Shown: positions 11,434-60,030 of the stretch, piece by piece
How the letters are laid out: every line of letters begins with the position of its first letter
How positions within the stretch are numbered: the first letter of the stretch is position 1
Origin: an uncultured archaeon
GTDB taxonomy: Archaea > Nanohalarchaeota > Nanosalinia > Nanosalinales > Nanosalinaceae
Length of the DNA: 64,000 bases
Assembly: GCA_964421955.1 (NCBI GenBank)
Contig: CAYQYU010000001.1
Location: forward strand, 76,521-140,520
Direction of reading: 5' to 3'
Notes under the pieces: model-generated
Database searches by the model: none
What the model was told of the DNA's origin: nothing
Seen by the model: only the letters and a program-made list of their open reading frames with translations
Made by a program: the position numbers and the translations under genes

Positions 11434-13083
11434 CTAATCCCTGACTAGATTCAGGAGTTTCTGCACATCGATCTCGAAGCCCGCAACCTTTCTGTCGAGC
11501 CCCCAGTTTTCCACCACACTGTTAGAGAACTCGCCTATGACTCCTACATGTTCCCCTTCGAACATGATATCTCCGGAGCGATCCTGGCGGAAACATTCTT
11601 TCCCGGAAGATTCAATCTCAAATTCGACTCCGAGTTCACGCCCCAGAACCTGTAAAACCTGCCGTACATCAGTGTAGCCCACTCCATTGTCCGAGTGAAC
11701 ATATGCTAGCTTCCTCTTGTTCGAAACACCTACCGCAGAGTTGTCGAGTTCGGAAACATCCGCGACCTCGAAGAACTTCTGCGGGTAGCTCCTGTGCCTA
11801 TTCCGGCCGAGCACCTCCATAAGCGACGGCAGTAGCCAGTTCCTCACAGCGGTATAATCCTCAGTTAGGGGGTTCGACATAGAGGCGATGTCTTCCTCCT
11901 CTAAGCCCATCTTTTCGAACAGCTTCTCCCTGTTTGAAAGGATGTAGGTATGAGCCTCCAGAGCCCCGGTTCCCTGGAAAATATCTCTCAACAGCCGTGT
12001 ATAATTCTCGACCGGTTTCTCGTTACCGATCTGGTCGGCCTCCGGCAGCTCTGGCTCTATATTATCGTATCCATGGGCTATCACCACGTCCTCTATAACA
12101 TCATACTGGTGCATCACATCGTTCCTGTAGGCGGGCACCTCAACAATGATCTTCCTCTTTTTCTTCTTCGCGCCGAACTTCATCCTCTCCAGCCGCTCGA
12201 CAATCTCCTTCCCGTCGAGTTCAAGTCCGGAGACCTTCTGGAAGTACTCGATATCAAGCTCCCGCTCCTCCGGTTCGAGATCCGGCATTACAGTGCCGTC
12301 GACACCCACTGCCTCTATCTTTCCTCCTCTCTCCGCCAGCGCAGTCGCAAGGATATTCAGGGCCTTCATAACTGTTTCACGATCCTTTCCTGTAACATCG
12401 ATGAAGATGTCCTGGGTTCCTGCAGAAACTTCTGTGAGCTGGTTGTTAATGATAGGCGGGAATGAGAGTACACGGTCTTCCGCATCCACAATTATAGGGT
12501 AGCGGTCCTCGTCCTCCAGTATCCAGGCGTACTCCTGTCCTTTCTCGTGCTCTTCGAGAATCTCCCCGAGCTGCATCTCTCTGTCATACTCAAGCGGTTT
12601 GAAAGATACTTTCTCGGGTTCGACCGCCCTGTATGTGAAAGGAGGCTCAACAGCGTCAAGGTCATGGAGGCCGATAGCGAGCTTGTCACGCCTTCTACCC
12701 ATCGATTCATGGAGCTTCTCCTGTAGCTGTATCAGTCCGTTGATCATCCTCTCTGAAAGCTCCAGATCACGGACAACCGCACCGCCGATGTAAGGTCTTA
12801 CGTCTTCAACCGAATCTTCAATCCTGATCTCCGTGCTGCCGTCCCGGATCCTGTATTCGTCCAGACCCTGCTCCAGCCCGAAGAATCCTCGATACGCGCG
12901 GGCAAGACCCTCCACTGACAGAAGGTCGGGACGGTTAGGATAGACCTCCACGTCCCACTTTTCGCCTTCTACGTGGTTCCAGTGCGCGCCCAGGAAAGAC
13001 GCCTTTTCGTGGAGAAGCCGCTCATCAACCTCATTCTCCATTAGACTGTCGAACTCCTTCTTGTTTATTTTGATATGTGAAAT
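11434..13083 (-). CDS. pheT: phenylalanine--tRNA ligase beta subunit; probable ATT start at 13083
   Basis: Archaeal PheT homology along the whole ORF (NRPDLLSVEGLARAYRGFFG and others). The first ATG is 13041, but the conserved N-terminus (I)SHIKINKKEFDSL is encoded upstream in frame. ATT 13083..13081 lies 6 nt behind GGAGGTGA. Confidence 0.9.
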   Translation of the reverse strand: MSHIKINKKEFDSLMENEVDERLLHEKASFLGAHWNHVEGEKWDVEVYPNRPDLLSVEGLARAYRGFFGLEQGLDEYRIRDGSTEIRIEDSVEDVRPYIGGAVVRDLELSERMINGLIQLQEKLHESMGRRRDKLAIGLHDLDAVEPPFTYRAVEPEKVSFKPLEYDREMQLGEILEEHEKGQEYAWILEDEDRYPIIVDAEDRVLSFPPIINNQLTEVSAGTQDIFIDVTGKDRETVMKALNILATALAERGGKIEAVGVDGTVMPDLEPEERELDIEYFQKVSGLELDGKEIVERLERMKFGAKKKKRKIIVEVPAYRNDVMHQYDVIEDVVIAHGYDNIEPELPEADQIGNEKPVENYTRLLRDIFQGTGALEAHTYILSNREKLFEKMGLEEEDIASMSNPLTEDYTAVRNWLLPSLMEVLGRNRHRSYPQKFFEVADVSELDNSAVGVSNKRKLAYVHSDNGVGYTDVRQVLQVLGRELGVEFEIESSGKECFRQDRSGDIMFEGEHVGVIGEFSNSVVENWGLDRKVAGFEIDVQKLLNLVRD

Positions 13084-14489
13084 TACGCATCACCTCCCGT
13101 CTTGTCCGGCCTCCATGCTGGCGTCTGTTCAAGTATTTCGATGTCGTTCCTGTAGAGTTCACGGATATCTTCAAGTCCTGCAGACTTCATCGCTATTCTC
13201 GGTATCCCTAGGCCCCAGGCGAGAACCGTAGCCTCGAATCCCAGCATCGGTTTCACCACTTCCGGCCGGAACATTCCCGCGCCGCCGAGCCCCACCCATT
13301 CCTGGTCTTTCTCATCCCACACATGCACCTCGACACTCATCTCGGTGTAGGGGAAGTAGCTCGGGACTAAACGGAACTCCTCGAACCCCATTTTGCTGAA
13401 GAACTCGCTGATGTAACCCTTCAGGTTCGTGAACGACAGGTCTTTCCCGACGACTATGCCGTCGGTCTGGTAGAACTCTGCGAGATGGAAGCGGTCGACT
13501 GTCTCGTTCCGGAAGTTCCTGGATACTGTAAAGAACTTCTTCGGCAGCTCCTCTTCATTTACATCGATCTCATGTATCCTCTGTATAGAGACCGCAGTAG
13601 TATGTGTCCTAAGAACATTCTTCTTTGCCTCCTCCAGCGACCAGTCGTATCCCCAGCCTCTTGAGCCTGTTTCCCAGCCGTTTTCATGCGTCTGCTTCAC
13701 GTGATCGACCTTGTCTCCATAGCTTGAAAGGTCCGCTTCCGCAGGATCTTCCATGAAGAATGTGTCATGCATCTCCCTTGCAGGGTGGTCCTGGGGGGTA
13801 TAGAGCGCGTCGAAGTTCAGGAAGCTCGATACTATGAAGTCGCCAGACATCTCCTGGAAGCCCATTTCCAGCCACTTCATCCTTGCCTGATCTATTATGT
13901 CCTTGTAGAAATGTTTCTTGCCGATACGCGGGGTCTTCACCGATGCCTCGACATTAAAGTCCTCGTCGATTTCGCCCAGTTCTACCGACTCACCCTCCGC
14001 AGTGATCTCGATGACTCTCTCCGTTTTTTCCCGGGTTCTTACCAGCCCGCGTTCTTCAAGGTCGGTATCGTAGTTCCGGGACTCCAGCTTCTGCCGGACA
14101 GGATCGCTGTCAAGATTCTCCCTGCCTTTCCTGGTGAGCGATGCCTCGCCGTCCTCGAGCCTCACCCACGATTTTTCTCTCGCTTTCCCTAAAGCTACGT
14201 CGAGATCAAGGTCTTGGAGATCAGAAAGTTCTCTGGATTCATCTTCGAGCCTCTGCACCAGCTGGTATTCCGGGGAACCGTGCTCCAGAACATCTCTGCC
14301 CGCGTCGGTAAGTTCGTGCGTTAGTTCATCCTCTTCCTGTATCTTCGCGAGCCCTTTCTCTTCAAGTTCCAGCCCGGCCCTGTGAACCATCGACTGGTCG
14401 TATCCCTCTTTCTCGAGATCCTCAATCTTCAGGGAACTCTTCTGCTTGAGCTCCTCCAGAATCTGGATTGCCTGGCTTGAAAGCTTCAC
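13083..14489 (-). CDS. pheS: phenylalanine--tRNA ligase alpha subunit
   Basis: 468 aa with class II aaRS motifs (HPAREMHDTFF, FRNE, GLGIPRIAM). GTG start with a TATA-like TTATTAAAG about 25 nt upstream. Confidence 0.9.
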   Translation of the reverse strand: MKLSSQAIQILEELKQKSSLKIEDLEKEGYDQSMVHRAGLELEEKGLAKIQEEDELTHELTDAGRDVLEHGSPEYQLVQRLEDESRELSDLQDLDLDVALGKAREKSWVRLEDGEASLTRKGRENLDSDPVRQKLESRNYDTDLEERGLVRTREKTERVIEITAEGESVELGEIDEDFNVEASVKTPRIGKKHFYKDIIDQARMKWLEMGFQEMSGDFIVSSFLNFDALYTPQDHPAREMHDTFFMEDPAEADLSSYGDKVDHVKQTHENGWETGSRGWGYDWSLEEAKKNVLRTHTTAVSIQRIHEIDVNEEELPKKFFTVSRNFRNETVDRFHLAEFYQTDGIVVGKDLSFTNLKGYISEFFSKMGFEEFRLVPSYFPYTEMSVEVHVWDEKDQEWVGLGGAGMFRPEVVKPMLGFEATVLAWGLGIPRIAMKSAGLEDIRELYRNDIEILEQTPAWRPDKTGGDA

Positions 14490-15282: not shown

Positions 15283-15597
15283 TCAGTCCAGGTTCTCCCA
15301 GTCCTGGAGCCAGTGTTCTACACGCTCTCTTTCACCGTTCCGAGCCCCGGTCAGGTCACAGTAGTAGTCGACCAGCGCTTCCTCCTCTGCAGGGTCCACA
15401 GTTGCGCCGCTGGGACGGTAAAGACGTGCCGTGCTCACGTCCTCCAGGATAACTATTGCACCCGTTTCACCAGCCCAGTGGATCTTGGAACCGGGCTCAA
15501 CCGGCCTATAGTCCGGGTTCTCAAGCTCTGTTAGTTCTCCAGGAGCCTCTGCATCCGGATTCTCGAGATAACCCTCAAGACAGCGGTATCCATTCAT
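15283..15597 (-). CDS. acidic hypothetical protein
   Basis: 104-aa ORF preceded by GGAGGTGA plus a 6-nt spacer plus ATG. No recognised domain. Confidence 0.45.
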   Translation of the reverse strand: MNGYRCLEGYLENPDAEAPGELTELENPDYRPVEPGSKIHWAGETGAIVILEDVSTARLYRPSGATVDPAEEEALVDYYCDLTGARNGERERVEHWLQDWENLD

Positions 15598-15877
15598 TGA
15601 TTCTCACCTCCTTTCTTACCTCTAAAGGTTTTAAACCAGTCGGAAACAGAAGATAGGCATTAGTCACTTGGGAGCCCACATCGGAGCTCCCTGGATAAAT
15701 TGGCGGTTGACCACCCTGTCTGAAAATCTGAATACACGTACGCGAGACGTGCTAAGAGCCGTCCCGGCACCAGCCGGGATTACCAGGCAAATTGGCGGTA
15801 AAACCCTTCGGCAATTTTAGCTCTCATACTAGGATTCTGGAGCAACTCAGGCTTAAAAAAGGTTCGGAACTCTGGTC

Positions 15878-25642: not shown

Positions 25643-25747
25643 CCGTCTATATCAGTATCTTTTAATCGATATAAATCTGCTGACCCGGAGGATTAATGGT
25701 TTAAAAGAGTGCACTCCGGTTTCGTTTTATACAACCAGCGTTTCTAT

Positions 25748-25822
25748 AGCGGGGTAGAGCAGCCAGGAGTGCTCGTCGGGCTCATAACCCGGAGGTCCGT
25801 GGTTCAAATCCACGCCCCGCTA
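25748..25822 (+). tRNA. initiator tRNA-Met(CAT)
   Basis: 75 nt. Acceptor AGCGGGG/CCCCGCT with A1:U72. GGG/CCC closes the anticodon stem, loop CTCATAA. T-arm CGTGG-TTCAAAT-CCACG, discriminator A, no CCA. Confidence 0.9.
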
Positions 25823-25901
25823 AAACTTCTGAAAGTTTTATCATCATAAACCATTCAATGACTGGCTTTCAGCGCTTGATCGAACTTAGCGCCTGAAGTT
25901 C

Positions 25902-27081: not shown

Positions 27082-27215
27082 GGGCCGGTAGCTCAGTCTG
27101 GCAGAGCGCGAGGCTCTTAAACACCTCAAGTCTCCGCAGGAGACGAGGACCCAGAAAATCTCCGATTTTCGATAGAGATACCTCGTCGTCGTGGGTTCAA
27201 ATCCCATCCGGCCCG
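27082..27215 (+). tRNA. tRNA-Lys(CTT) with a 60-nt intron
   Basis: Acceptor GGGCCGG/CCGGCCC, D-arm GCTC/GAGC. Anticodon stem CGAGG/CCTCG with loop C-T-CTT-A. Intron 27120..27179 after position 37. T-arm GTGGG-TTCAAAT-CCCAT, discriminator G. Confidence 0.85.
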
Positions 27216-45790: not shown

Positions 45791-45879
45791 CGCCGGGACT
45801 GGGATTTGAACCCAGGAGGGCCGTCACGGCCCACCGGTTCTCAAGACCGGCACTTTTAGCCAGACTCAGTCATCCCGGC
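45791..45879 (-). tRNA. tRNA-Ser(TGA)
   Basis: 89 nt. Acceptor GCCGGGA/TCCCGGC, discriminator G. Anticodon arm CCGGT-CTTGAGA-ACCGG. Long variable arm (GGGCCGTGACGGCCC). T-arm CTGGG-TTCAAAT-CCCAG. Confidence 0.9.
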
Positions 45880-45923
45880 AGATTGTAAATCTGCTGTGGA
45901 TACAGAAACTCTTCAGAGTTTCG

Positions 45924-45934
45924 CATCCCGGCAG
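45924..45934 (-). repeat. 11-nt copy of the tRNA-Ser 5' end
   Basis: CATCCCGGCAG on the plus strand repeats 45871..45881. A chance match cannot be excluded at this length. Confidence 0.45.
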
Positions 45935-46033
45935 TAATAGAGCGCTCGGACTATAGAATTTAGCCTGTGGAAAGTTTAAATTAGGGAAGGTATAGCCAAG
46001 AAATTTAGACTTCTAGAACAAAAAAAAATTAAC

Positions 46034-46270
46034 ATGGCAGGACCACATCCATCGAAGATTGAACTCGAGAACGCGAAGGTCTACATCCACAAGAAGGACG
46101 AGGACTCTGGCTCCCAGAACATCCACATCGACGTAGAGCATCCTGAACTCAACGAAGTAATAGAGCCTGGAGAGAATACCTTTGTCGGCGGGAAGAAAGA
46201 TGGAGTCTTCATCGGCCTCAAGAACGAGATGATCGACAGAGCGAAAAACTGGATTGAGAAACACGAATGA
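46034..46270 (+). CDS. hypothetical protein
   Basis: 78-aa ORF downstream of a TATA-like TTTAAATTA. No recognised domain. Confidence 0.4.
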   Translation: MAGPHPSKIELENAKVYIHKKDEDSGSQNIHIDVEHPELNEVIEPGENTFVGGKKDGVFIGLKNEMIDRAKNWIEKHE

Positions 46271-46364
46271 AACTGGTTTTTCGTGAGTTACAGAAACTTC
46301 AAGCTTCAAATGGAGCCGAGAACGCCGGGAAAACGAATAAAACACGCGGGGAGAATCCCGAGAC

Positions 46365-46952
46365 ATGGGCAGCTATATCGAGGAGCTCCAGGAAGACCGG
46401 GAAAAGAAGTCGGAGATCGTCGTGACTGTCGACGGACCTTCGGCCGCCGGAAAAGGAACACTCGCAGAGTTTATAGCAGAGGAGCTCGGAGTCAAACAGT
46501 TCTCCGCCAGCGACGTGTTTTACTCTATCGCAGAGGAACGAGGTCTGAAAGATGTGGAGTTCTCAAGCGAGGCTGAGAAAGAAGTCGATCTAGAGGTTGA
46601 CCGGAAGACTCTGGAACGCGGTCTCAAGAAATCTTGCGTGATCGATGCCCGGATAGCATCCTGGGTGCTTGGAGATTACGCGGACTTCACGATTCACCTG
46701 ACCGCAGATCTCGAAGAACGCACAAGGAGGCTCGCGGAGAGGGAGGGACACGATATCGAAGAGGCCCGGAAAATTTTGGAGGAGCGTGACCAGGAGGACT
46801 CCCGACGGTACCAGAACTACTATGGAATCGATACTGACGACCTTGAGATATACGATCTGATTGTGGACAACACTGATTTGAACATCGAGAAGCAAAACCG
46901 TCTCGTGAAGAAGGTCCTGAAACAGGCCTTCCCAGAAAGATTCGAGGATTGA
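46365..46952 (+). CDS. cmk: cytidylate kinase (archaeal type)
   Basis: 195 aa. P-loop DGPSAAGKGT, and LEVDRKT...RRYQNYYGIDTDDLEIYDLIVDN. Confidence 0.85.
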   Translation: MGSYIEELQEDREKKSEIVVTVDGPSAAGKGTLAEFIAEELGVKQFSASDVFYSIAEERGLKDVEFSSEAEKEVDLEVDRKTLERGLKKSCVIDARIASWVLGDYADFTIHLTADLEERTRRLAEREGHDIEEARKILEERDQEDSRRYQNYYGIDTDDLEIYDLIVDNTDLNIEKQNRLVKKVLKQAFPERFED

Positions 46953-46953
46953 A

Positions 46954-47367
46954 ATGCCGTACGAGATACTTGACCACACCGCCGACGCAAAGTTCCAGGC
47001 CACAGGTCACGATCTGGAAGAAGCATTCTCAGAATCAGTCGAGGCATTCTCAGAAGTTGTTGGCGACGGCGAGGTAGGCAGCGTCAAGCATGAAATCGAG
47101 GTCGAATCCGAGAACCTGGAGGCACTGCTGTTCGACTTCATGGACGAGCTCATCTACCTCCAGGACGTCAATAATGTTATAGTCGGGAGGGCAGAGAACC
47201 TGAAAATTGAGGAACTCAAACCAGGTTACCGGATTACCGCGGACATCTACGTTGACAATATAAGCCCGGGCTGCTCGTACCTCGATATCAAGGGGCCGAC
47301 CTACAACGAGATGAAGATCGAGCACGGCGATCACGAGTGGGTGCTTGAAGTGGTGCTCGACATATAG
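46954..47367 (+). CDS. archease (RtcB activator)
   Basis: 137 aa. N-terminal YEILDHTADAKF. Lies directly upstream of rtcB. Confidence 0.9.
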   Translation: MPYEILDHTADAKFQATGHDLEEAFSESVEAFSEVVGDGEVGSVKHEIEVESENLEALLFDFMDELIYLQDVNNVIVGRAENLKIEELKPGYRITADIYVDNISPGCSYLDIKGPTYNEMKIEHGDHEWVLEVVLDI

Positions 47368-47458
47368 CGTATTACAAAAATATCATTTAAAGCCCTATTA
47401 ATAGATTTTGTATTACAAAATCCAAGTCTTTACAAGTTTTCGGCTCCAGATATAGAAC

Positions 47459-48877
47459 ATGGAACTGAAACAGGTCGACGACAACATCTACGAAATTCCG
47501 CAGGAAGGACAGATGAAAGTGCCTGCCAGAATATACGCATCCGAGAGGCTTCTGGAAGAGATACAGCAGGATAGGACGCTTGAGCAGGTCAAGAATGTCG
47601 CGACGCTTCCAGGCATACAGAAATACTCGATAGTGCTGCCTGACGGCCACCAGGGATACGGATTCCCTATTGGCGGGGTCGCGGCAGTGGACACGGAAAC
47701 GGGCGTCATAAGCCCTGGAGGTATCGGATACGACATCAACTGCGGTGTCCGCGTCCTGAAGACCAGCCTGAAGCTTGAAGATATAAAAGGAAGAGAGCAG
47801 CAGCTCGCCAACATCATGTTCAGCAAGGTTCCAACCGGACTCGGGAAAGGAGGATACATCGATATTGACAGGAACGATCTCCGGGAGATACTTGAGAAAG
47901 GAATGGAATGGATGCTGGAAAACGGTCACGCCCGGGAAAGCGATCTCGAGCACTGCGAGGAGAAAGGCCGCCTTGAAGGCGACGCAGGAAAGGTCCCGGA
48001 CGAGGCGATTGACCGAGGACTCAACCAGCTGGGCTCACTCGGATCGGGAAACCACTTCCTCGAGGTCCAGACAGTATCAGATATCTACAGCCAGAACAAG
48101 GCGGAGGCTTATGGCCTGGAGGAAGACCAGGTGGTCGTTATGATTCATTCCGGCTCCAGAGGTCTCGGGCACCAGACCTGCACCCATTACCTCAGGAAGT
48201 TCGAGAAAAACTACCCGGAAATAGTTGAAGAAATACCTGACAAGGAGCTGATCTACGCCCCTCTAGAAGACGAACTGGCACAGGATTACTGGAATGCCAT
48301 GAATGCGGCCGCAAACTTCGCCTGGGCTAACAGGCAGGCGATGACCCAGGCGGTCCGGGAGGCCCTGGACACTTTATTTGGCGATGTCAAGGTTGACCTG
48401 GTCTATGATGTCTGCCATAACATCGCGAAAAAGGAGATGCATGAAGTCAACGGAGAGCAGAAAGAGCTTCTGGTACACAGGAAAGGAGCAACGAGAGCTA
48501 TGCCTGCAGGGAGACCAGAAGTGCCTGAAGCCTACCAAGACGTGGGACAGCCAGTACTAATTCCAGGCACCATGGGAACCTCATCCTACATTCTCTCGGG
48601 TGGTGAAAACTCCCTGGAAATCTCGTTCGGCTCTACTGCTCACGGCGCAGGAAGACTCAAGTCGAGAACACAGGCCAAGAAAGAGTACCGCGGCGAAAGG
48701 TTACAGAAAGATCTACAGCAGGAAGGAGTGTGCGTCAAGGCAGCCTCAGGCGAGACAGTCGCTGAGGAGGCTCCCGGCGCCTACAAGGATGTCGACGAGG
48801 TCATCCGCGTCTCCGACGAACTCGGGATCGGAAAAAAGGTGGCGAGAATGACTCCGATCGCAAACATTAAGGGCTAG
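47459..48877 (+). CDS. rtcB: RNA-splicing ligase RtcB
   Basis: 472 aa. PDGHQGYGFPIGGVAA, DINCGVR, GSGNHFLE, HSGSRGLGH and HGAGR. Confidence 0.95.
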   Translation: MELKQVDDNIYEIPQEGQMKVPARIYASERLLEEIQQDRTLEQVKNVATLPGIQKYSIVLPDGHQGYGFPIGGVAAVDTETGVISPGGIGYDINCGVRVLKTSLKLEDIKGREQQLANIMFSKVPTGLGKGGYIDIDRNDLREILEKGMEWMLENGHARESDLEHCEEKGRLEGDAGKVPDEAIDRGLNQLGSLGSGNHFLEVQTVSDIYSQNKAEAYGLEEDQVVVMIHSGSRGLGHQTCTHYLRKFEKNYPEIVEEIPDKELIYAPLEDELAQDYWNAMNAAANFAWANRQAMTQAVREALDTLFGDVKVDLVYDVCHNIAKKEMHEVNGEQKELLVHRKGATRAMPAGRPEVPEAYQDVGQPVLIPGTMGTSSYILSGGENSLEISFGSTAHGAGRLKSRTQAKKEYRGERLQKDLQQEGVCVKAASGETVAEEAPGAYKDVDEVIRVSDELGIGKKVARMTPIANIKG

Positions 48878-48908
48878 ATCTATAACTTTCTAGCTACAAT
48901 ACACGCCC

Positions 48909-49520
48909 ATGGACAACAACCAACTTAGATACGTGGTCCGGCAGCTTGGCCAGATGCAAGAAGATTCAGCACTGGAGTTTAGCTACGGCAGTATAAAGAG
49001 AGAAACTACAAAAAACGAAGAACTTGCAGAATACGATCCAGATGAAATAGCAGCAACTATAGTCCCTTCCGATGAAGAAGAGTACCTTTCAATAGGAGGA
49101 CCTAGCCTCCAGGCTAACTTCTATATTACGACAACTCCAAATCCCGTGTTTGAATACAAACTAATCGCGAATGGAAGGAAAGCTGTAGAAGAGACTGTAG
49201 AAGACATAGAATGGAATGCTAAATGCCTTATGGAAGATAGAGAGCTAGGAGAATCTACCATCGCCTGGGATTATGATTTCGACACAACTGTAGATCAAAG
49301 AGAGCACTTTAAACCCGGGGATAACTCTCAACCTGTCAAGTTCAGAACTGATCCTGTATACCACTTAGATCACCTAACTGAGATAGCAGACAGAGCATAC
49401 CGCGCCAGGGAGAGAGTAAGAGAGGAGTTAGACCCCCTAACCCGAGACATCAGCCATATTCTGGATGAACACAGTCAGAACGTTCCCGGCAGATTCCAAG
49501 AACCAGAATCCTGGTGTTAA
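48909..49520 (+). CDS. acidic hypothetical protein
   Basis: 203-aa ORF. No recognised domain. Confidence 0.4.
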   Translation: MDNNQLRYVVRQLGQMQEDSALEFSYGSIKRETTKNEELAEYDPDEIAATIVPSDEEEYLSIGGPSLQANFYITTTPNPVFEYKLIANGRKAVEETVEDIEWNAKCLMEDRELGESTIAWDYDFDTTVDQREHFKPGDNSQPVKFRTDPVYHLDHLTEIADRAYRARERVREELDPLTRDISHILDEHSQNVPGRFQEPESWC

Positions 49521-49563
49521 CTAGCACTTCCCTGACAAAACCTGGACTTACCCCATCGCTCTA

Positions 49564-49571
49564 TTTATAAA
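49564..49571 (+). promoter_or_regulatory. candidate TATA box of the rpl3 operon
   Basis: TTTATAAA predicts a transcription start near 49595 and a leader of about 135 nt before the rpl3 start. Confidence 0.45.
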
Positions 49572-49731
49572 ACTTGGTTGTGACTGTTGAATTACTCTCA
49601 GGCACACTGGAACCACTGGTTCCGGGTTCGCAGAAGCTCCGTCAAGGAGTTTCGAGCGGTTCTTGGGAGACAAGCCTTCGCTTGTGGTGAAGGCCTCTGG
49701 AGCGAGTCAACCGAACAAGAGGTGACTATCT

Positions 49732-50703
49732 ATTTCCGACGTAAACAGACCACGCAGTGGATCGCTAGGGTTCAAGCCCAAGGTACGCGCACAGAGGATC
49801 TATCCAGAGATAGATAACTGGAAGGACGAGGAAGAGATGAAGCCGCTGGGATACGCCGGCTACAAGGTCGGCATGACACGAATCCTGATGATCGACGATA
49901 CCGAAGGAGCGACAAGCGGTCAGGAAGTTGCGACACCAGTAACAGTACTTGAAGCACCACCTCTCCGGATATACGGCGCCCGTTTTTACACCGAAGACCC
50001 TAATTCCGGTAAGCAAGTCTTCACTGAAGCGTGGACTGAATCGCCTTCTCCAGAGCTACAAAGAGCGACCGACATCCCGAAGGAAGGCAACATGGACAAC
50101 TTTGACGCGGCAAAGGAGATTTCCGACGATCTGATTGACGTGAGGCTCCTGGTCCATACCCAGCCATCACAGGCCGGCATTAGCAGGAAGAAGCCGGAGA
50201 ACTTCGAGATCGGTCTCGGAGGAACAGTTGACGAAAAAATTGAATACGCGGAAGAGATGATTGGAAAGGAGATAGAGTTCTCCGACGTTTTCGAGCCAGG
50301 AGAGTACTCCGATGTTGTCGCAGTGACCAAAGGACGTGGTACTGAGGGTCCGATCAAGAGATACGGCATCAAGAGGTTGACCCACAAGACCCAGAAGAAA
50401 CGACGCAAGGCAGGAAACGTTGGCCCATGGCATCCTGACAAGCTATCGTGGAAAGTTCCACTTCCAGGGCAGCAGGGCTACAATAACCGGACGGAGCTGA
50501 ACAAGAGAATCATCGGATACGGAGAGGAGCCTGAAGAAGTACAGCGCGACGGAGGATTCAAGGGCTACGGCGAGGTCAGGTCGAACTACATACTCATTAA
50601 GGGATCAGTTCCCGGCTCTGAGGAGAGACTTGTAAGGCTGAGAACCGCGCTGAGAAAAGACGAAAAACCAGGAGAACCAGAGATAACACACGTTGACAGG
50701 TGA
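49732..50703 (+). CDS. rpl3: 50S ribosomal protein L3 (uL3); probable ATT start
   Basis: uL3 homology (GYAGYKVGMT, TKGRGTEGPIKR, HPDKLSWKVP..GQQGYNNRTE). The conserved N-terminus SDVNRPRSGSLGFKPK is encoded in frame upstream of the first ATG (49837). ATT 49732 lies 6 nt behind GAGGTGA. Confidence 0.9.
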   Translation: MSDVNRPRSGSLGFKPKVRAQRIYPEIDNWKDEEEMKPLGYAGYKVGMTRILMIDDTEGATSGQEVATPVTVLEAPPLRIYGARFYTEDPNSGKQVFTEAWTESPSPELQRATDIPKEGNMDNFDAAKEISDDLIDVRLLVHTQPSQAGISRKKPENFEIGLGGTVDEKIEYAEEMIGKEIEFSDVFEPGEYSDVVAVTKGRGTEGPIKRYGIKRLTHKTQKKRRKAGNVGPWHPDKLSWKVPLPGQQGYNNRTELNKRIIGYGEEPEEVQRDGGFKGYGEVRSNYILIKGSVPGSEERLVRLRTALRKDEKPGEPEITHVDR

Positions 50704-50712
50704 GAACTAAAA

Positions 50713-51471
50713 ATGACCGATCTACCAGACCAGTTCAATGAACGAGTGAGGCCGGACATTATCAAGCGCGCGGTTCTTTCAATCCAGTCGAAGAACCGCC
50801 AGAGCTACGGAAGCGATAGAGAAGCTGGTCTGAAACACATGACCTACTGGAAGAAGAGAAATAACGCATTTAGAAGCCAGAAAGGAAGAGGACAGTCACG
50901 GACGCCCCGGAAGATTGTTAGAAGACAGGGCAGCCAGCTCGTAGGAATAGGTGCAGAGGCTCCGAACACCCGAGGCGGTAGAAGGGCACATCCTCCAAAG
51001 GTAGAAAAGGATTTCGACGAGGAGATCAACGACAAGGAGCGCAGGAAAGCAATCCGTTCCGGAATCGCGGCCTCCAACGATATCGATCTAGTCAGCGAAA
51101 AGCACAGTTACGAGGGCGATCTTCCGCTTGTAGAAGATATCGAGGACATCGAAAAGACCTCGGAGCTTGAGAAGACGCTAGAAGACCTCGGACTCGAGGA
51201 AGAGCTTGAAAGAGTCAGGGAAAAGAATGTTAGAGCCGGCAGAGGAACATCCCGCGGAAGAAAATACCGCAGAAAGGTGGGGCCTCTGCTCGTAGTTGCT
51301 AAAGACGGCGGTATCTTCGACGCCGCATCAAATCTTCCGGGAGTCGATATCTCCCGGGTCGAAAACCTTAACGCAGAGCTTCTCGCACCCGGCACAAAGC
51401 CAGGAAGACTGGTAGTCTGGAGCGAGGAAGCACTGGAAAAACTTGGAGACGAGCAGCTTTTCGTGGATTGA
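50713..51471 (+). CDS. rpl4: 50S ribosomal protein L4 (uL4)
   Basis: 252 aa. RPDIIKRAV...Q.YG and GRRAHPPK. Confidence 0.95.
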   Translation: MTDLPDQFNERVRPDIIKRAVLSIQSKNRQSYGSDREAGLKHMTYWKKRNNAFRSQKGRGQSRTPRKIVRRQGSQLVGIGAEAPNTRGGRRAHPPKVEKDFDEEINDKERRKAIRSGIAASNDIDLVSEKHSYEGDLPLVEDIEDIEKTSELEKTLEDLGLEEELERVREKNVRAGRGTSRGRKYRRKVGPLLVVAKDGGIFDAASNLPGVDISRVENLNAELLAPGTKPGRLVVWSEEALEKLGDEQLFVD

Positions 51472-53274: not shown

Positions 53275-54381
53275 ATGCAGGAGAAACAGTTTATCGACAA
53301 GGGCGCCAGGAAGGTAAGGCTTCACGAATATCTCGAAGAAGAGCTAGAGGGCGCAGGTTATTCGAAGAGCGATATTGTAAGAACCCCGACATCCACAAAG
53401 ATCGTTATCTTCGCCCAGAGACCGGGGCTAGTAATCGGTCGGGGCGGATCACGCATCAGAGAACTCACCTCCGAGATGGAAGAGAAATTCGATTTCGAGA
53501 ACCCGCAGGTCGAGGTAAACGAGATCGAGAACCCGGACGCAGACGCGGAAATAGTCGCGAAATCAATGGCTTCCTGGCTTGAGAAAGGCGGTCGAACAAA
53601 GAGAGTCGGCTACACTTACCTGAGAAGGATGAAGGAGGCAGGAGTGATCGGCGCAGAGATCGAGATCGCCGGGAAACTATCAGGTAACAGGGGTCGCACG
53701 GAAAAGTTCTCATTCGGATACGTGAAACGATGTGGAAACACCTCGAAGGAAAACGTCGCACAGGCCTACGAACTCGCGAGAACCAAGCCTGGAGCGATCG
53801 GCGTGAAGGTAAGAATAATGGAGTCGATGCCCGAGTTCAAGCACCGGGATGTCGACGTTGAGGAGGAAATCCTCCACGAGACGATCGAGCACGAGGAAGG
53901 TTTACCGCGTGACGAGAGAATCGAAATGGTCGTGGCAGAGGCCGAGAACATGACCTCCACAGGTATTGAAGACGCGATGGGAGAACTCGAGGTCGGAACA
54001 GACGACATCGAGAAGCAGGAGGTCAGGGACGTCTTTGAGGACCGTGGAGAAGAGATCCAGGAAGAAGCCGAAGAAAGAGAGCAAGAAGTAGAGACAGAAG
54101 ACGCCAAGGAGGAAAGTGACACTGAAGAAGACGAAGCAGAAGAGACTGAAGAGGAACCTGAGGCCGAGGAAGAAGAACTAGAGACCGAAGAGGAAGAGAG
54201 TGAAGAAGATACCGAAACAGCTTCCGCGGACTACGAAGAAATCCTATCCGGAACGATCAGCGACGCCAAAGACGTGCTTGAAGACCTGGAAAATCCGGAC
54301 TGGGATGCCGCGCTTGAAGCCGAGAAGGACAACAAAAATCGCACAACATTCATCGACTGGCTCGAAACCAGGATAGACTGA
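53275..54381 (+). CDS. rps3: 30S ribosomal protein S3 (uS3) with a C-terminal extension of about 160 aa, mostly acidic
   Basis: KH/S3 core (GLVIGRGGSRIRELT, GAEIEIAGKLSG) followed by a long E/D-rich tail ending DWDAALEAEKDNKNRTTFIDWLETRID. Confidence 0.93.
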   Translation: MQEKQFIDKGARKVRLHEYLEEELEGAGYSKSDIVRTPTSTKIVIFAQRPGLVIGRGGSRIRELTSEMEEKFDFENPQVEVNEIENPDADAEIVAKSMASWLEKGGRTKRVGYTYLRRMKEAGVIGAEIEIAGKLSGNRGRTEKFSFGYVKRCGNTSKENVAQAYELARTKPGAIGVKVRIMESMPEFKHRDVDVEEEILHETIEHEEGLPRDERIEMVVAEAENMTSTGIEDAMGELEVGTDDIEKQEVRDVFEDRGEEIQEEAEEREQEVETEDAKEESDTEEDEAEETEEEPEAEEEELETEEEESEEDTETASADYEEILSGTISDAKDVLEDLENPDWDAALEAEKDNKNRTTFIDWLETRID

Positions 54382-54574: not shown

Positions 54575-55555
54575 ATGAAAATCCTTGGAATTGAAAGTAC
54601 GGCCCACACGTTTGGCGTAGGAATAGTCAACGAGGAGGAAATACTCGCGAACGAAAAGTCGATGTTCGAGCCGGAAGAGGGCGGCATACACCCACGTAAG
54701 GCAGCGGAACACCACTACCAGAACGCCCTGGAGGTGCTGAAAAACGCGCTCCAGAATGCGGACCTGGAAGAGGATGATCTGGATGCTATAGCATTTTCCC
54801 AGGGACCAGGTATCCCGCAATGCCTGGATACCGGAGCTGTTGTCGCTCGATCACTCAGTATGAAGCACGAAATACCCCTTATAGGCGTAAACCACTGTCT
54901 CGCCCACATCTCTATCGGGACTAGAACCACGGGAGCAGAAGCCCCGACCACGCTCTACCTATCCGGCGGAAACTCCCAGATACTTGAGCTCAAGAACGGG
55001 CGGTACCGGATTATCGGGGAGACTCTCGACGTCGCTCTTGGAAATGCGCTTGACAAGCTAGCACGGAAAATGGGTCACCCACATCCGGGAGGACCGGAGA
55101 TAGAGAGGTTGGCGGAAGGGACTTCAGATATAGTCGAAGTCTCCTATCCCATCAAGGGGATGGACTTCTCCTTTTCCGGACTGGTCACTGAGTGTGAAAG
55201 AAAAATTAACAGTGTGGAAGAAGAGGTAATCGCGAACAGCTTCCAGGAGCACGCCTATGCCGCAGTGGTCGAGGCGCTGGAACGTGCAATGGCGCAGGAA
55301 GAATCGGATGAGGCGCTTTTGACCGGCGGCGTTGCGATGAACTCTCGGCTGAGGGAGATGGTGGAGCAGATGTGCGAGCAGCGGAATGCGGAAGCCTACT
55401 TTCCACCGAGAGAGTTCTGCATGGATAACGGCGCGATGATTGCGGAACAGGGGCGGCTGGAGCTGGAAGCTGGCAGAGAGACTCCTGTAGAAGAATCCGC
55501 AAAGAAACCGAACTGGAGACCTGACGAGGTCGAGGTAACATGGACCTGGAGCTAG
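54575..55555 (+). CDS. kae1: tRNA N6-adenosine threonylcarbamoyltransferase Kae1
   Basis: 326 aa. ILGIESTAHTFGVGIV, GVNHCLAH, LYLSGGN and FCMDNGAMI. Confidence 0.93.
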   Translation: MKILGIESTAHTFGVGIVNEEEILANEKSMFEPEEGGIHPRKAAEHHYQNALEVLKNALQNADLEEDDLDAIAFSQGPGIPQCLDTGAVVARSLSMKHEIPLIGVNHCLAHISIGTRTTGAEAPTTLYLSGGNSQILELKNGRYRIIGETLDVALGNALDKLARKMGHPHPGGPEIERLAEGTSDIVEVSYPIKGMDFSFSGLVTECERKINSVEEEVIANSFQEHAYAAVVEALERAMAQEESDEALLTGGVAMNSRLREMVEQMCEQRNAEAYFPPREFCMDNGAMIAEQGRLELEAGRETPVEESAKKPNWRPDEVEVTWTWS

Positions 55556-56130
55556 AGCAACAGATAAAGCGGGCCAGAGAAGCCCTGAAAGATGGCGGAA
55601 TGGCGATCTTCCCGACTGAGACTGCCTACGGCATAGCCGTGGACGCGATGAATCCTGGTGCGGTGGAGAAAGTCTATGAGGCCAAAGGGAGACCGCGAGA
55701 GAAAGGTCTTACAGTGATAGTTGCCAGCCTGGAGCAGGCGGAAGAGCACGCAGAGCTTTCAGACGAGGATAGGAAGGTGGTGGAAGAGTTCATGCCTGGC
55801 CCGCTGACACTTGTAGTGGAGAAGAAACCAGAGGTCCCCGATATTCTCAACGAAAAATTTGTGTTCCGGATCTCTTCCAGCAGGATCGCCAGAGAGTTGG
55901 CAAGGAACAACCCCATTACCGCAACAAGCGCCAACATTTCAGGTACGAAGACTTCTTACCGGGTCGAGGATATCGACCCAGAACTACGGGAAATGGCGGA
56001 CTACATTATCGACATCGGCGAACTCGAGCGTTCTCCCACCTCTACGATCGCAGAAGTTAATAACTCGCGTCTCGTCATTCACCGTAGAGGCCCGGTTACA
56101 CGGGAACAGCTCGAAGACGTGCTAAAATAA
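55540..56130 (+). CDS. tsaC: threonylcarbamoyl-AMP synthase, YrdC-domain-only (TsaC/Sua5 family)
   Basis: 196 aa. FPTETAYGIAVDA, KGRP..K.L and TATSANISG. Overlaps kae1 by 16 nt. Confidence 0.9.
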   Translation: MDLELEQQIKRAREALKDGGMAIFPTETAYGIAVDAMNPGAVEKVYEAKGRPREKGLTVIVASLEQAEEHAELSDEDRKVVEEFMPGPLTLVVEKKPEVPDILNEKFVFRISSSRIARELARNNPITATSANISGTKTSYRVEDIDPELREMADYIIDIGELERSPTSTIAEVNNSRLVIHRRGPVTREQLEDVLK

Positions 56131-57806
56131 TGGCTGGGACACTTGCGCTTGAACCTTTCGCACTGCTTGTAGTAGTCGCTGCTCTACTCGGGATTGTATT
56201 CCGGAAGCTGAAGCAGCCGACACTCGTAGCATACATCGTTACCGGTCTTGTGCTCGGACCAGTGGGGCTTGCGGTGGTTTCAAAGACCGGTATAATAGAG
56301 ACACTTTCAGAGCTCGGCCTGGTTTTCCTTCTCTTCCTCATAGGCCTTGAGATACAGATTGACGAAATAAAACAGATACTCAAACCCGTGACAGTAATAG
56401 CAGTTCTCCAGATGTCCTTGACCGCTTTCGTGGGCTATTTCCTGGCGCAGTTCCTCGGCTTCGGTCTTATGGAGTCTCTGATTATAGCTGCGGCCTCGAT
56501 GTTCTCCTCTACCGCGGTCGTTGTGAAGCTGCTCGCGGACAGGGACGAGATCTCGACTTTACCGGGCAAGATCGATATAGGCATACTGTTGCTTCAAGAT
56601 CTCGCGGTCGTGATAATACTCACAGTTCTGGGTACAAACGCCGCCACCCCTCTTGAGATAGGATTTAACATAGTAGAGATTGCCGCCGTGGTCGGAGCCA
56701 TAGGATCACTGTCCTACCTCTCATCTCTCTACCTTCTGCCCAGGATATTCCGGAAAATATCCGAGAACCAGCACGCCTTCTTCGTCCACGGTATCGCCTG
56801 GGCCTTCGTACTCATAACAGCTGCATCACAGTTCGGGGTCTCACAGGAGATCGGCGCATTCATCGCGGGCCTGAGTCTCGCACAGATACCCTACAGCCAG
56901 GAACTACAGGAACGGGTCCGCCCCCTGACAGATTTCCTGATGGCGGTCTTCTTCATAAACATCGGTCTCAGCCTCTCCCCGGGCTCTTTAGGGATCTACT
57001 GGCAGGAAGCCCTTATCGCCTCAGGAGTTCTTGTTGTCTCAAAGTTCGGCATAATAATGGCGCTGGTGGATCGGGCAAAATTCACGCCGGAAACCTCACT
57101 CAGGGCAAGCCTCAACATGAGCCAGATCAGCGAATTCTCCCTGATCCTGGGAGGGGTAGCAGTCGCAGAAGGCCTTGTAGGCCCTGAAATCCTGGGTTTC
57201 CTGAGCATAGTCGTCATCACAACCATGGGCGCCTCATCGTACCTCATAACGTTCAACTCACAGATCGTTGACAAGGTGGAACATCTGCTCCGGATACTGG
57301 AATCCGATGAGAAAGAGGACGTCGAGATCAGGGATCTCGAGAACCATGCCGTGGTGATCGGCTACGACAGGCTCTCACGGAAAACACTGCCCGTGCTGAA
57401 AGAGTACTTCGACGATGTAATAGTTATAGACCGGGATCCCCGGAACACTTCAGACCTTGCGGCATCAAAATACGAGTATATCTACGGGGACTTCAGGCAC
57501 TCCGAGATCAGGAAGGCCTCGGGAATAAAGGAGGCAGACCTGGTGATATGCCTGGCACCGGATAAATGGGTGAACAGGAAGGCCGCAGAAGACTCGGGAG
57601 ATGCCACACTGTTCCTGAAGGCCAGAAACATGGAGGAAGCCGCCGAACTCTACGATCTCGGAGCCCATTATGTCATAGTGAAGAACATTATAGCCGGGGA
57701 AAAAATGAGCGAGTACCTCCAGCTCTACGCCGAGGACCCCGAACTATTCAGGGAAGAGATAAGCAGAGATCTGGAGTCGATCCACTGGGGTGGTAACCTT
57801 GACTGA
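56130..57806 (+). CDS. CPA2-family cation:proton antiporter (Kef-like) with C-terminal RCK/TrkA-N domain
   Basis: 558 aa with about 11-12 TM segments (ELGLVFLLFLIGLE). The C-terminal Rossmann-like domain starts HAVVIGYDRLSRK. The ATG overlaps the tsaC TAA. Confidence 0.85.
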   Translation: MAGTLALEPFALLVVVAALLGIVFRKLKQPTLVAYIVTGLVLGPVGLAVVSKTGIIETLSELGLVFLLFLIGLEIQIDEIKQILKPVTVIAVLQMSLTAFVGYFLAQFLGFGLMESLIIAAASMFSSTAVVVKLLADRDEISTLPGKIDIGILLLQDLAVVIILTVLGTNAATPLEIGFNIVEIAAVVGAIGSLSYLSSLYLLPRIFRKISENQHAFFVHGIAWAFVLITAASQFGVSQEIGAFIAGLSLAQIPYSQELQERVRPLTDFLMAVFFINIGLSLSPGSLGIYWQEALIASGVLVVSKFGIIMALVDRAKFTPETSLRASLNMSQISEFSLILGGVAVAEGLVGPEILGFLSIVVITTMGASSYLITFNSQIVDKVEHLLRILESDEKEDVEIRDLENHAVVIGYDRLSRKTLPVLKEYFDDVIVIDRDPRNTSDLAASKYEYIYGDFRHSEIRKASGIKEADLVICLAPDKWVNRKAAEDSGDATLFLKARNMEEAAELYDLGAHYVIVKNIIAGEKMSEYLQLYAEDPELFREEISRDLESIHWGGNLD

Positions 57807-59454
57807 AATCCTCACCCTGCTTACCGCGATCTTCGTGGTTTCCTCAGTGATGATATTCGTGATGGACCGGTTGTCCCACTCTGCGCTCCCCGCCTACATA
57901 CTTGCCGGGGTGGTCATAGGAGTCTTTCTCGGGCAGAAAAGCCAGATAATTGGGCTCTCGCAGCTGGGCATAGCATTTCTGGTCTTCATATTCGGACTCA
58001 AGACAGAACCGGAGAGGATAAAATCCGTCGCCGGAGAGAGCGTCTCGACCACGGTCATACAGGTTCTGGTTATAGGAGCCACCACCTATCTCTTCGCCCA
58101 GGGACTGGGGCTGGACCTGCTGAACACTCTTTACCTCGTGATAGCGGCCTCCCTGAGTTCCTCGCTAGTCGGGCTTGAACTCGCAGAGAAAGAGATCAGG
58201 ATCGATCTGCTTCACGGGAGGCTCTCGGAATCCATACACCTCACACAGGACCTTATAGCCATAGCCGCAGTACTGGTGCTGTCGTCGGCAGTTATAACAC
58301 CTTCCGCAGCGATATCAAACCTTTTCAAGGGAGCGCTCCTGATACTTCTCGCACTGATGGTGCGCTCAACCGCATTCCCGGTAATCTCCCGGCAGGTGAG
58401 CGAGTCAACGGAACTGACAATGTTCGCGGGAATAGCATTCCTCGCCACCTTCATAGGGGCAGCTTCCATACTGGGCATATCCATAGTCGTGGGTTCTTTC
58501 GCGGCCGGGCTCGCCGTAGCACGTTTCCCCTACAACATGGAGCTGCTCGAGAACATGGGATCGCTGAAGGACTTCTTCTCAGCGATCTTCTTCGTCTCAC
58601 TCGGGGCGCTGGTAACAGTTCCGAGCATACAGGGGATTATACTCGCGATCTTCCTCATAGGAATCACCGTGGTACTCAAGCCGACCATAACCGTTCTGGC
58701 GCTCCTGATCAGCGGCTACGACCAGCGGACATCACATCTCACCGCACTGTCGCTCGACCAGGTGAGCGAATTCGGCCTGATAATCGCTATACAGGCATTC
58801 ATAGCGGGCACGATACAGACCGAACTCTTCAACGCCATAGTTCTCGCCGCGGCAGTAACAATGATTACCTCCTCCTACACCAGCAAGAACGAGGAACTCA
58901 TATACCGTATTGTCTCACGGTACAGCACAGTCGATACCAACAGGAAGAAGATCGAAAAATGGACTTCCATGGACGAAGAGCTTAATGACCACGTTATACT
59001 GATAGGCTACGACACACAGGGCAAGGAAATTGCGGAGGCCCTGAAAAAGGAAGGTCAGGAGTTCGTGATAGTTGAGAACGACCCCGAGAAGATAATGGAG
59101 GCGAAGGAAAAAGAGGAGAACTACATCTTCGGGGACGTCATGGACGAGAAAACATGGGAGATAGCAAAGGCGGAAAAGGCGAAGCTCGCAGTCTCGACAA
59201 TACCACGCCACAAGGTATCGATGAAAATACTCGTCAGGGATAAACCAGAACACAAGATACTGAGATCAGGAGAAATAGAAAAGGCGGAAGATCTCCTGCA
59301 CAAAGGCGCCCTGTACGTCGAGGTCCCGGACATCGTTGCAGCGGAAGAGCTGCTGGACCACATACGCGGAGTGATGGAGAACACCAACTACCGCGAAGAA
59401 CTCCGGAGAAGAAACCTTTTAGAGATAAGGAGATACCTTCAGTCCGAGGAGTAG
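57790..59454 (+). CDS. second CPA2-family cation:proton antiporter with RCK/TrkA-N domain (tandem paralog)
   Basis: 554 aa with the same architecture (QLGIAFLVFIFGLK; HVILIGYDTQGKE). The start is GTG 57790 or TTG 57799, either overlapping the previous gene. Confidence 0.85.
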   Translation: MVTLTEILTLLTAIFVVSSVMIFVMDRLSHSALPAYILAGVVIGVFLGQKSQIIGLSQLGIAFLVFIFGLKTEPERIKSVAGESVSTTVIQVLVIGATTYLFAQGLGLDLLNTLYLVIAASLSSSLVGLELAEKEIRIDLLHGRLSESIHLTQDLIAIAAVLVLSSAVITPSAAISNLFKGALLILLALMVRSTAFPVISRQVSESTELTMFAGIAFLATFIGAASILGISIVVGSFAAGLAVARFPYNMELLENMGSLKDFFSAIFFVSLGALVTVPSIQGIILAIFLIGITVVLKPTITVLALLISGYDQRTSHLTALSLDQVSEFGLIIAIQAFIAGTIQTELFNAIVLAAAVTMITSSYTSKNEELIYRIVSRYSTVDTNRKKIEKWTSMDEELNDHVILIGYDTQGKEIAEALKKEGQEFVIVENDPEKIMEAKEKEENYIFGDVMDEKTWEIAKAEKAKLAVSTIPRHKVSMKILVRDKPEHKILRSGEIEKAEDLLHKGALYVEVPDIVAAEELLDHIRGVMENTNYREELRRRNLLEIRRYLQSEE

Positions 59455-59457
59455 GAG

Positions 59458-60030
59458 ATGACAGAGATACAGGGCGCAGAGGCCACAGTTGAAATTGACG
59501 GAAACGTGATCAAGAAACGGCTGAGAAAGAACTACAGGCACCGCGAACTCGATGGAAGAATCAGGAAGGACAGGACCGGGAAAGAGGCCAGAATAATGAA
59601 AGAGGCACGGAAAAACGGCGCCCGCGTTCCAGAAGTGGAACAGGTCGATGACTACACCCTGGATATAGAGAAGATAGAAGGAGAACAGCTCAAAGACGTG
59701 CTGGAAGACAATATTGATGCGATGAGCGATCTCGGAAGGAACACGGCAAAGTTGCACGGCGCGGACATAATCCACGGAGACCTCACGACCAGGAACACCA
59801 TTCTATCCGACGAAATCTACCTTATCGACTTCGGTCTTGCCTCCCGGTCACAGAGGATAGAGGACCGGGCAGTCGACATACATCTCCTCAAACAGGTGCT
59901 CGAAAGTTCCCATCCGGGAGTCGCAGAGGAGGCATGGAAAAACTTCCGGGAAGGTTACCGGGAATACGAGAAGAGTGAAGAGGTCCTGGAAAGACTTGAA
60001 GAGGTTGAAAAAAGGGGTCGCTACAAGTGA
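59458..60030 (+). CDS. bud32: KEOPS kinase/ATPase Bud32
   Basis: 190 aa. GAEATV, YRHRELD..IR..RT..EAR, IIHGDLTTRN and LIDFGLA. Confidence 0.9.
   Translation: MTEIQGAEATVEIDGNVIKKRLRKNYRHRELDGRIRKDRTGKEARIMKEARKNGARVPEVEQVDDYTLDIEKIEGEQLKDVLEDNIDAMSDLGRNTAKLHGADIIHGDLTTRNTILSDEIYLIDFGLASRSQRIEDRAVDIHLLKQVLESSHPGVAEEAWKNFREGYREYEKSEEVLERLEEVEKRGRYK

Follow-up and report, generated by a model that had tools for sequence, protein, structure and literature searches.

A putative AUU start codon for ribosomal protein uL3 in a nanohaloarchaeon, with a second candidate in pheT

Where does translation of ribosomal protein uL3 begin when its reading frame holds no ATG, GTG or TTG at the expected position? 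The question is raised by the rpl3 locus of an uncultured nanohaloarchaeon (family Nanosalinaceae), situated in a 64,000-nucleotide stretch that was analyzed as a whole and is hereafter called the window (assembly GCA_964421955.1, contig CAYQYU010000001.1, positions 76,521 to 140,520). At this locus, an ATT codon occupies the place of the initiator ATG of relatives. The evidence described below indicates that uL3 is probably translated from this AUU (49732–49734), and that pheT, encoding the beta subunit of phenylalanyl-tRNA synthetase (PheRS beta), presents a second likely case. An ATT start for uL3 was the main claim of a first-pass annotation of the window, made from the sequence alone; the start codons of 28/28 relatives, the alignment with Met1 of Thermococcus kodakarensis uL3, the signs of purifying selection, the Shine-Dalgarno spacing and the arrangement in pheT all agree with it.

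Layout and homology of the uL3 start region

Direct reading of positions 49400–50900 gives the order GAGGTGA (49719–49725), CTA TCT and ATT (49732–49734), with the TGA at 49723–49725, inside GAGGTGA, forming a stop in the uL3 frame. The first ATG, GTG or TTG of the frame is ATG 49837, 37 codons being counted up to it from the TGA and 35 from the ATT. The ATT is the sole near-cognate codon from the in-frame TGA to the conserved uL3 motif, and no other start for a full-length uL3 was found, as no in-frame ATG, GTG or TTG lies upstream of ATG 49837 as far as that stop and none lies nearby in other frames. Translated from the ATT, the frame reads I-SDVNRPRSGSLGFKPKVRAQRIYPEIDNWKDEEE-M, and it closes at TGA 50701–50703, 9 nt ahead of the uL4 ATG. 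The consensus Shine-Dalgarno sequence of nanohaloarchaea has been reported as GGAGGUGA, with the anti-Shine-Dalgarno sequence UCACCUCC (PMC10783764). These findings reproduce what the first-pass annotation had described, namely a frame first offering a canonical start at 49837 but open back to the TGA, 37 codons free of ATG, GTG and TTG with ATT as the only near-cognate codon ahead of the motif, and a GAGGTGA that contains the in-frame TGA and sits exactly 6 nt 5' of the ATT.

Homology places Met1 at the same codon. Profile scoring, for which the translation from 49726 was used, assigned the protein to uL3 with NF003261 (379.1 bits, cut-off 341) and TIGR03626 (373.2 bits, cut-off 308.7), both cut-offs being passed. 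The match to NF003261, the archaeal uL3 equivalog, begins two residues past the ATT. Residue 3 of T. kodakarensis uL3 (6skf_BD) likewise aligns two positions past the ATT, which therefore falls at Met1. The conserved N-terminal segment RPRxGSLxFxPK/R, identical in three relatives (P0003, P0005 and P0008), is included only if translation begins at or before 49732. A protein search placed the window in Nanohaloarchaea, where uL3 relatives of 322–323 residues share 80–82% identity over 100% of the length; several of the closest start MSDVNRPRSGSLGFKPKVRAQRIYPEID and differ from the window in this segment only by M versus I. The gene context is also conserved. Open reading frames for uL4, uL23, uL2, uS19, uL22 and uS3 (at 50713, 51478, 51759, 52474, 52869 and 53275, respectively) follow uL3, as their orthologues do in relatives' loci, and uS3 was verified by profile. 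Hence, the proposal that the codons ahead of ATG 49837 encode the conserved archaeal uL3 N-terminus is matched by profiles, the 6skf sequence and relatives alike. Lack of homology between the upstream peptide and uL3 N-termini had been named as evidence that would count against an ATT start; the alignments show homology instead.

The first-pass annotation had left it to an alignment of orthologues and their upstream DNA whether the ATT is conserved or replaced by ATG. We compared the DNA of 25 nanohaloarchaeal genome loci and one more distant locus, and looked at the loci of two further proteins (P0075 and P0076) besides. The codon homologous to the ATT is ATG in all 26 fetched loci and in 28/28 relatives overall, so the ATT is not conserved. 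One relative (L013) reads GAGGTGA-CAATCT-ATG where the window reads GAGGTGA-CTATCT-ATT; its layout matches that of the window but for the ATG, and the state in the window can thus be described as a single G-to-T change in an ordinary start region. P0075 and P0076, uL3 proteins of 301–302 residues from other nanohaloarchaea, were considered as further non-canonical starts and rejected, as their DNA has ATG at Met1 and the short proteins are gene-calling errors. Relative to the nearest relative, codons 2–36 of uL3 show pN of 0.13 and pS of 0.46, with zero stops and zero indels. These values show purifying selection, and from this and the intact frame it follows that the segment was translated for most of the history of this lineage.

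To place the ATT in context, neighboring genes (RtcB, uL4, uL23, uL2, uS19, uL22, uS3, archease and cmk) were compared in the relatives' loci. For each of the approximately 140 starts that could be aligned, an ATG, GTG or TTG stands at most a few codons from the position indicated by the alignment, and the ATT starts are therefore specific to this lineage.

A second ATT codon in pheT and start sites across the window

On the opposite strand, pheT shows the arrangement GGAGGTGA, TGC GTA and ATT (13083–13081), with the A of the ATT being the final base of the pheS stop codon TAA. Position 3 of the archaeal pheT profile TIGR00471 aligns with the residue two past this ATT. Among 22 metagenomic relatives with alignable N-termini, the homologous codon is ATG in 21 and GTG in one, ATT thus occurring in 0/22, and the relatives' pheS/pheT junction is either TAATG or an adjacent TAA-ATG. 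That pheT shares the uL3 arrangement of a Shine-Dalgarno site, two codons and ATT had been noted in the first pass, and the sequence, the profile and the relatives agree.

To see how unusual these codons are, all stop-to-stop frames of at least 110 codons in the window were listed with canonical and near-cognate (ATT, ATC, ATA and CTG) starts and with Shine-Dalgarno matches. In addition, 50 window genes were scanned with profiles; about 37 matched a family, and N-terminal alignment was judged for those alone. Within this set of frames and family-matched genes, no non-canonical start was found beyond uL3 and pheT, the N-terminus fitting a canonical start in every other profile-matched case. The 65 accepted gene starts comprise 53 ATG, five TTG, four GTG and two ATT, the remaining entry being a mis-set coordinate for uS12. 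A longer, TTG-initiated open reading frame from 40052 was rejected as the uS12 gene, which starts at ATG 40250 on the forward strand, about 25 nt past a TATATAAAAAG box, and its mRNA is probably leaderless or near-leaderless. As a separate observation from this survey, the gene at 28320–30251 on the reverse strand encodes a 643-residue asparagine-synthase-like protein with a C-terminal diphthine-ammonia ligase (Dph6) region. The asparagine-synthase profile aligns from position 18, and the protein apparently has no N-terminal catalytic Cys segment; a single codon separates its ATG from the preceding stop, and this is therefore not a start-codon issue.

Shine-Dalgarno complementarity of at least 7 nt occurs at only 3/65 starts, each with 6-nt spacing. 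These are pheT (ATT, 8 nt), a 104-residue open reading frame at 15597 (ATG, 8 nt) and uL3 (ATT, 7 nt). The 8-nt site ahead of the 104-residue frame had also been singled out in the first pass. Its remark that most other sites in the window are only 4–5 nt long is roughly right but not exact, as five other starts have 6-nt sites. The hypergeometric chance of both ATT genes falling among the top three sites is approximately 0.0014, a value calculated after the pattern was noticed. For the combination AGGTGA-N6-ATT, 0.42 occurrences would be expected in 64 kb; there are two, and these are the Met1-aligned codons of uL3 and pheT, whereas GAGGTGA alone is at chance level (12 matches in the window versus 12.7 expected). 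It had been suggested that a longer Shine-Dalgarno site would suit a weak start codon. However, equally long sites stand before ATG in uL3 and pheT relatives, and since ATG-bearing relatives of uL3 carry the same 7-nt site, compensation for the ATT was rejected as its origin. The long site predates the ATT and probably permitted it.

Public annotation differs at both genes. The only database protein 100% identical to uL3 is a 288-residue gene call from ATG 49837, and the public pheT call is a 535-residue protein from ATG 13041; both shortened calls come from one 158,209-bp NCBI contig. Judging by the alignments, these calls are most likely truncated, with uL3 missing 35 and PheRS beta missing 14 N-terminal residues. 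ATT is permitted as a start codon in translation table 11. Gene finders limited to ATG, GTG and TTG will repeat such truncations in other archaeal metagenome genomes.

Alternatives at the ATT base, at ATG 49837 and in the upstream leader

Some observations weigh against initiation at AUU. The ATT occurs at the uL3 start in 0/28 relatives and may be a slightly harmful mutation of very recent origin. In vitro, the initiation factor aIF1 of Sulfolobus solfataricus rejects AUU (reviewed in PMC4705826), and the efficiency of such a start may be low. No second assembly spans the ATT base, the available Logan contig ending at 49596. Lastly, of 26 sequences only that of this genome has ATG at uL3 codon 36, and a shorter isoform is conceivable. 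The last two of these bear on distinct alternatives.

The first is that the ATT arose through an error in sequencing or assembly, or that a minority allele became fixed in the consensus, and that the organism really has ATG. The window derives from a metagenome-style contig, and searches for independent copies of an ATT-start uL3 returned no identical protein elsewhere; the M-initial 323-residue form was not in the protein collection, and the N-terminal 110 residues used as a query gave no identical fragment among five candidates evaluated. Nonetheless, two start codons, independent of each other and on opposite strands, carry the same change, and two random errors both striking the third base of a start codon would be very unlikely. 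All profile-matched window genes (about 37) are intact and align from their N-termini, and the uL3 and pheT sites have no methylation-like or homopolymer context in common beyond ATTTC. The independent Logan contig (SRR14300223_168346, L056), assembled from a public run, matches the window without a difference over 3,799 nt (45798–49596) and carries an identical RtcB. It breaks directly after a 32-nt promoter stretch that L002, a different nanohaloarchaeal species, has in identical form; the de Bruijn graph probably branched at this conserved promoter, and the shared stretch explains the break without variation at the ATT. Sequencing error is thus an unlikely source of the ATT, and we give this alternative as a whole little credence.

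The second alternative is translation from ATG 49837, giving a 288-residue uL3 without the archaeal N-terminal extension, either alone or beside the ATT-initiated form. This is the first canonical in-frame start. In 25 relatives, codon 36 specifies Q, L, K, E, T or R and is never ATG, and the acidic linker before it (49822–49836) has changed in the window from the usual E-T-D-E to D-E-E-E, creating a GAGG 5 nt upstream of the ATG. Bacterial uL3 begins at about the codon-36 position of archaeal uL3, so that the core could conceivably fold without the extension. However, a start at ATG 49837 would remove 35 residues that are found in all nanohaloarchaeal, archaeal and eukaryotic uL3 proteins examined and whose codons are intact and under purifying selection. 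The GAGG is short and nearer to its ATG than the spacing range elsewhere in the window, and a canonical-start reading would separately cost pheT 14 N-terminal residues that match TIGR00471. We therefore consider this alternative quite improbable, although a shorter isoform from ATG 49837, possibly minor, is conceivable beside a full-length uL3 initiated at AUU.

A third alternative concerns the DNA upstream of the ATT, which appears to carry the promoter and leader of the uL3 operon (Table 1). A TTTATAAA(A/G)-N~20-TTAC block was found 5' of uL3 in 27 relatives. In the window, the conserved TTAC (49592–49595) lies about 20 nt past the TATA box and, judging from this spacing, is the likely transcript start, giving a 5' untranslated region of about 135 nt. 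The leader folds as a single sequence at −61.3 kcal/mol (z = −2.25), and RNAalifold analysis of 19 relatives yielded 12 pairs, nine of them with compensatory changes. A covariance model of the leader (R1) has one match in the window (49650–49706, 30.3 bits) and recovers the element in eight held-out sequences. In relatives (L001–L025, L027 and L028), the order is P1, ACAA and P2, followed by CTCTGG or CAATGG, and the distance from this motif to the start codon ranges from 12 to 102 nt. The leader had no match in Rfam, even at E values up to 10, and a literature search for archaeal uL3-operon leaders gave nothing relevant. It could represent an archaeal ribosomal-protein leader of a class not yet described.

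Within this leader lies a same-frame upstream open reading frame (49591–49725) containing TTG 49663 and GTG 49684/49687. The uL3 N-terminus could be reached through it by termination at the TGA and reinitiation, or by readthrough or recoding of the TGA. The frame is indeed open from 49591 to the TGA with those internal codons, and the TAATT overlap of pheS and pheT fits termination-reinitiation. Against this, the stretch is a structured non-coding leader with compensatory pair changes and with a length that varies among relatives (12–102 nt from its motif to the start codon), and the upstream frame was rejected as a gene on these grounds. Its TTG and GTG codons sit within helices and have no Shine-Dalgarno sites. 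TGA is a true stop in this genome, as uL3 itself ends at TGA 50701–50703, at the C-terminal residue of relatives, which also rules out TGA as a sense codon (codes 4 and 25). Moreover, reinitiation would require ATT as a start anyway. The route from the upstream frame that had been offered in the first pass as another way to the uL3 ATT is thus weakened by the covarying leader. Termination-reinitiation is unsupported for uL3, this third alternative being the most improbable of those considered, while for pheT it is plausible as a helper.

Table 1. Positions of the features discussed, in window coordinates
Feature	Position	Strand	Remarks
Shine-Dalgarno site GAGGTGA of uL3	49719..49725	+	Seven bases agree with the nanohaloarchaeal consensus GGAGGUGA; contains the in-frame TGA
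ATT, proposed uL3 start codon	49732..49734	+	6 nt past the Shine-Dalgarno site; aligned with the ATG of 28/28 relatives and Met1 of 6skf uL3
uL3, full-length coding sequence	49732..50703	+	323 codons and TGA stop; NF003261, 379 bits; TIGR03626, 373 bits
ATG at uL3 codon 36	49837..49839	+	First canonical in-frame start; start of the public 288-residue call
Shine-Dalgarno site GGAGGTGA of pheT	13090..13097	-	Matches in all 8 nt; lies within the 3' end of pheS
ATT, proposed pheT start codon	13081..13083	-	Overlaps the pheS stop TAA (13083–13085) as TAATT
pheT, full-length coding sequence	11434..13083	-	549 codons and stop; TIGR00471, 551.7 bits, profile positions 3–551
Comparator GGAGGTGA-N6-ATG, 104-residue open reading frame	15595..15611	-	Shows that a canonical start works at 6-nt spacing in this genome
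Archaeal TATA box TTTATAAAA, uL3 operon promoter	49564..49572	+	Block upstream of uL3 in 27 relatives
Structured 5' leader	49597..49700	+	P1 49597–49667 (two inserted hairpins), ACAA, P2 49674–49694, CTCTGG tail 49695–49700
Initiator-type tRNA-Met	25747..25823	+	CAU anticodon unaltered; ARAGORN and direct reading

Proposed mechanism, known AUU starts and neighboring genes

On our best reading, the ATT functions as a start codon, though a weak one; it arose from ATG and was tolerated through an optimal Shine-Dalgarno site. Transcribed from the TTTATAAAA promoter, the uL3 operon mRNA would have its 5' end about 135 nt ahead of the AUU and bear the structured leader. GAGGUGA would pair with the 3' end of 16S rRNA (UCACCUCC) and put the P site 6 nt downstream, on the AUU. 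Given its A1:U72 pair and an anticodon stem with three G:C pairs, we take the tRNA-Met at 25747–25823 to be initiator-type, judging from established archaeal initiator tRNA features. An altered initiator tRNA is ruled out, as the anticodon is a normal CAU, and a normal initiator Met-tRNA would therefore read AUU with a third-position mismatch. The protein would then start Met-Ser-Asp-Val-Asn-Arg-Pro-Arg, as in relatives. In evolutionary terms, the uL3 ATT would be a lineage-specific G-to-T change of an ancestral ATG, probably made tolerable by the pre-existing, near-perfect and optimally spaced Shine-Dalgarno site, and pheT would have undergone the same ATG-to-ATT change, with coupling to pheS translation as a possible aid. 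With an AUU, initiation is expected to be less efficient and to depend on the fidelity factor aIF1, because aIF1 discriminates against AUU in the Sulfolobus in vitro system. The sequence layout, the homology and the pattern among relatives are observed directly; from these we infer initiation at AUU, methionine as the first residue and the lowered efficiency.

A further reading, which we regard as doubtful, holds that AUU is a regular start in this lineage, under relaxed stringency, when it stands 6 nt behind a full GGAGGUGA, and that the uL3/ribosomal-protein operon and PheRS beta are throttled by, or coupled to, aIF1 and the initiator tRNA. If true, relaxed use of AUU would give archaea a counterpart to infC-style control, and would lead to systematic misannotation of N-termini in DPANN genomes.

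AUU starts are established in bacteria, in infC (PMC4705826) and in ebpA of Enterococcus faecalis (PMC4447247), and the infC AUU reportedly serves autoregulation by IF3 (PMC4705826). As in E. coli infC and ebpA, the codons in uL3 and pheT are rare starts that occupy the expected position and follow a Shine-Dalgarno site, annotation is misled by an ATG further downstream, and attenuated, fidelity-factor-dependent expression is to be expected. The bacterial conservation pattern of infC is not seen here, however, as ATT is confined to one lineage for uL3 (0/28 relatives) and is likewise absent from pheT relatives (0/22). Unlike infC and IF3, uL3 and pheT have no known link to aIF1, and the host, unlike those of the bacterial AUU genes, is an archaeon that uses e/aIF2 and aIF1.

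Archaeal precedents are fewer. Near-cognate initiation sites appeared in ribosome profiling of Haloferax but were set aside (PMC7261190), and the Asgard tubulin AtubA has been assigned an ATT start on in silico evidence (PMC13394414). AtubA resembles uL3 in that both are archaeal metagenome genes whose deposited proteins are N-terminally short, the evidence in each case being in silico, and in that an upstream ATT at a plausible distance from a ribosome-binding site restores conserved N-terminal residues. In contrast to AtubA, the uL3 case has dozens of ATG orthologues and a second gene in the same genome, and concerns a universally conserved essential protein. The layout at uL3 otherwise follows archaeal Shine-Dalgarno initiation (PMC6237735, PMC4705826), in which pairing of the GGAGGUGA type on a leadered mRNA pre-positions the start codon. 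The Pyrococcus abyssi aEF1A model mRNA, GGAGGUGA-N6-AUG, has a spacing equal to that of uL3 (PMC6237735, PMC4705826). Compared with the in vitro picture of aIF1, an abundant ribosomal-protein mRNA that is productively translated from AUU would be exceptional. The pheS/pheT junction resembles termination-reinitiation pairs of the TAATG type in its one-base overlap (TAATT), but differs from these in having ATT as the restart codon, and uL3 has no credible upstream translated frame.

Taken as proposed, the ATT starts of uL3 and pheT would join the known kind of AUU starts, and would stand out in that one of the two genes leads the main ribosomal-protein operon and the other encodes a subunit of a tRNA synthetase. 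An AUU-dependent operon of this type, together with the synthetase subunit, would offer a natural test of the extent to which a perfect Shine-Dalgarno site can override start-codon discrimination in archaea. Two ATT starts in 64 kb, compared with 0 in approximately 190 start codons checked in relatives, are a hint that selection is relaxed, or initiation fidelity altered, in this symbiont lineage with its reduced genome.

Several minor observations concern other genes of the window. The ribosomal-protein cluster does not continue with uL29, uS17 and uL14 after uS3 at this locus. The uS3 gene itself (53275–54381, forward strand) encodes 368 residues, of which the profile spans residues 2–208, leaving a C-terminal extension of about 160 residues. 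The uL3-uS3 block is followed directly on the forward strand by t6A-synthesis genes for Kae1 (54575–55555), Sua5/TsaC (55540–56130) and Bud32 (59458–60030), and two genes for CPA2-type cation/proton antiporters interrupt this cluster (54575–60030). Elsewhere, an Rfam tRNA match of 134 nt at 27082–27215 (forward strand), which was not called by ARAGORN, is probably an intron-containing tRNA, and the gene for the tRNA-splicing endonuclease, endA, lies near it (approximately 22869–23408, reverse strand).

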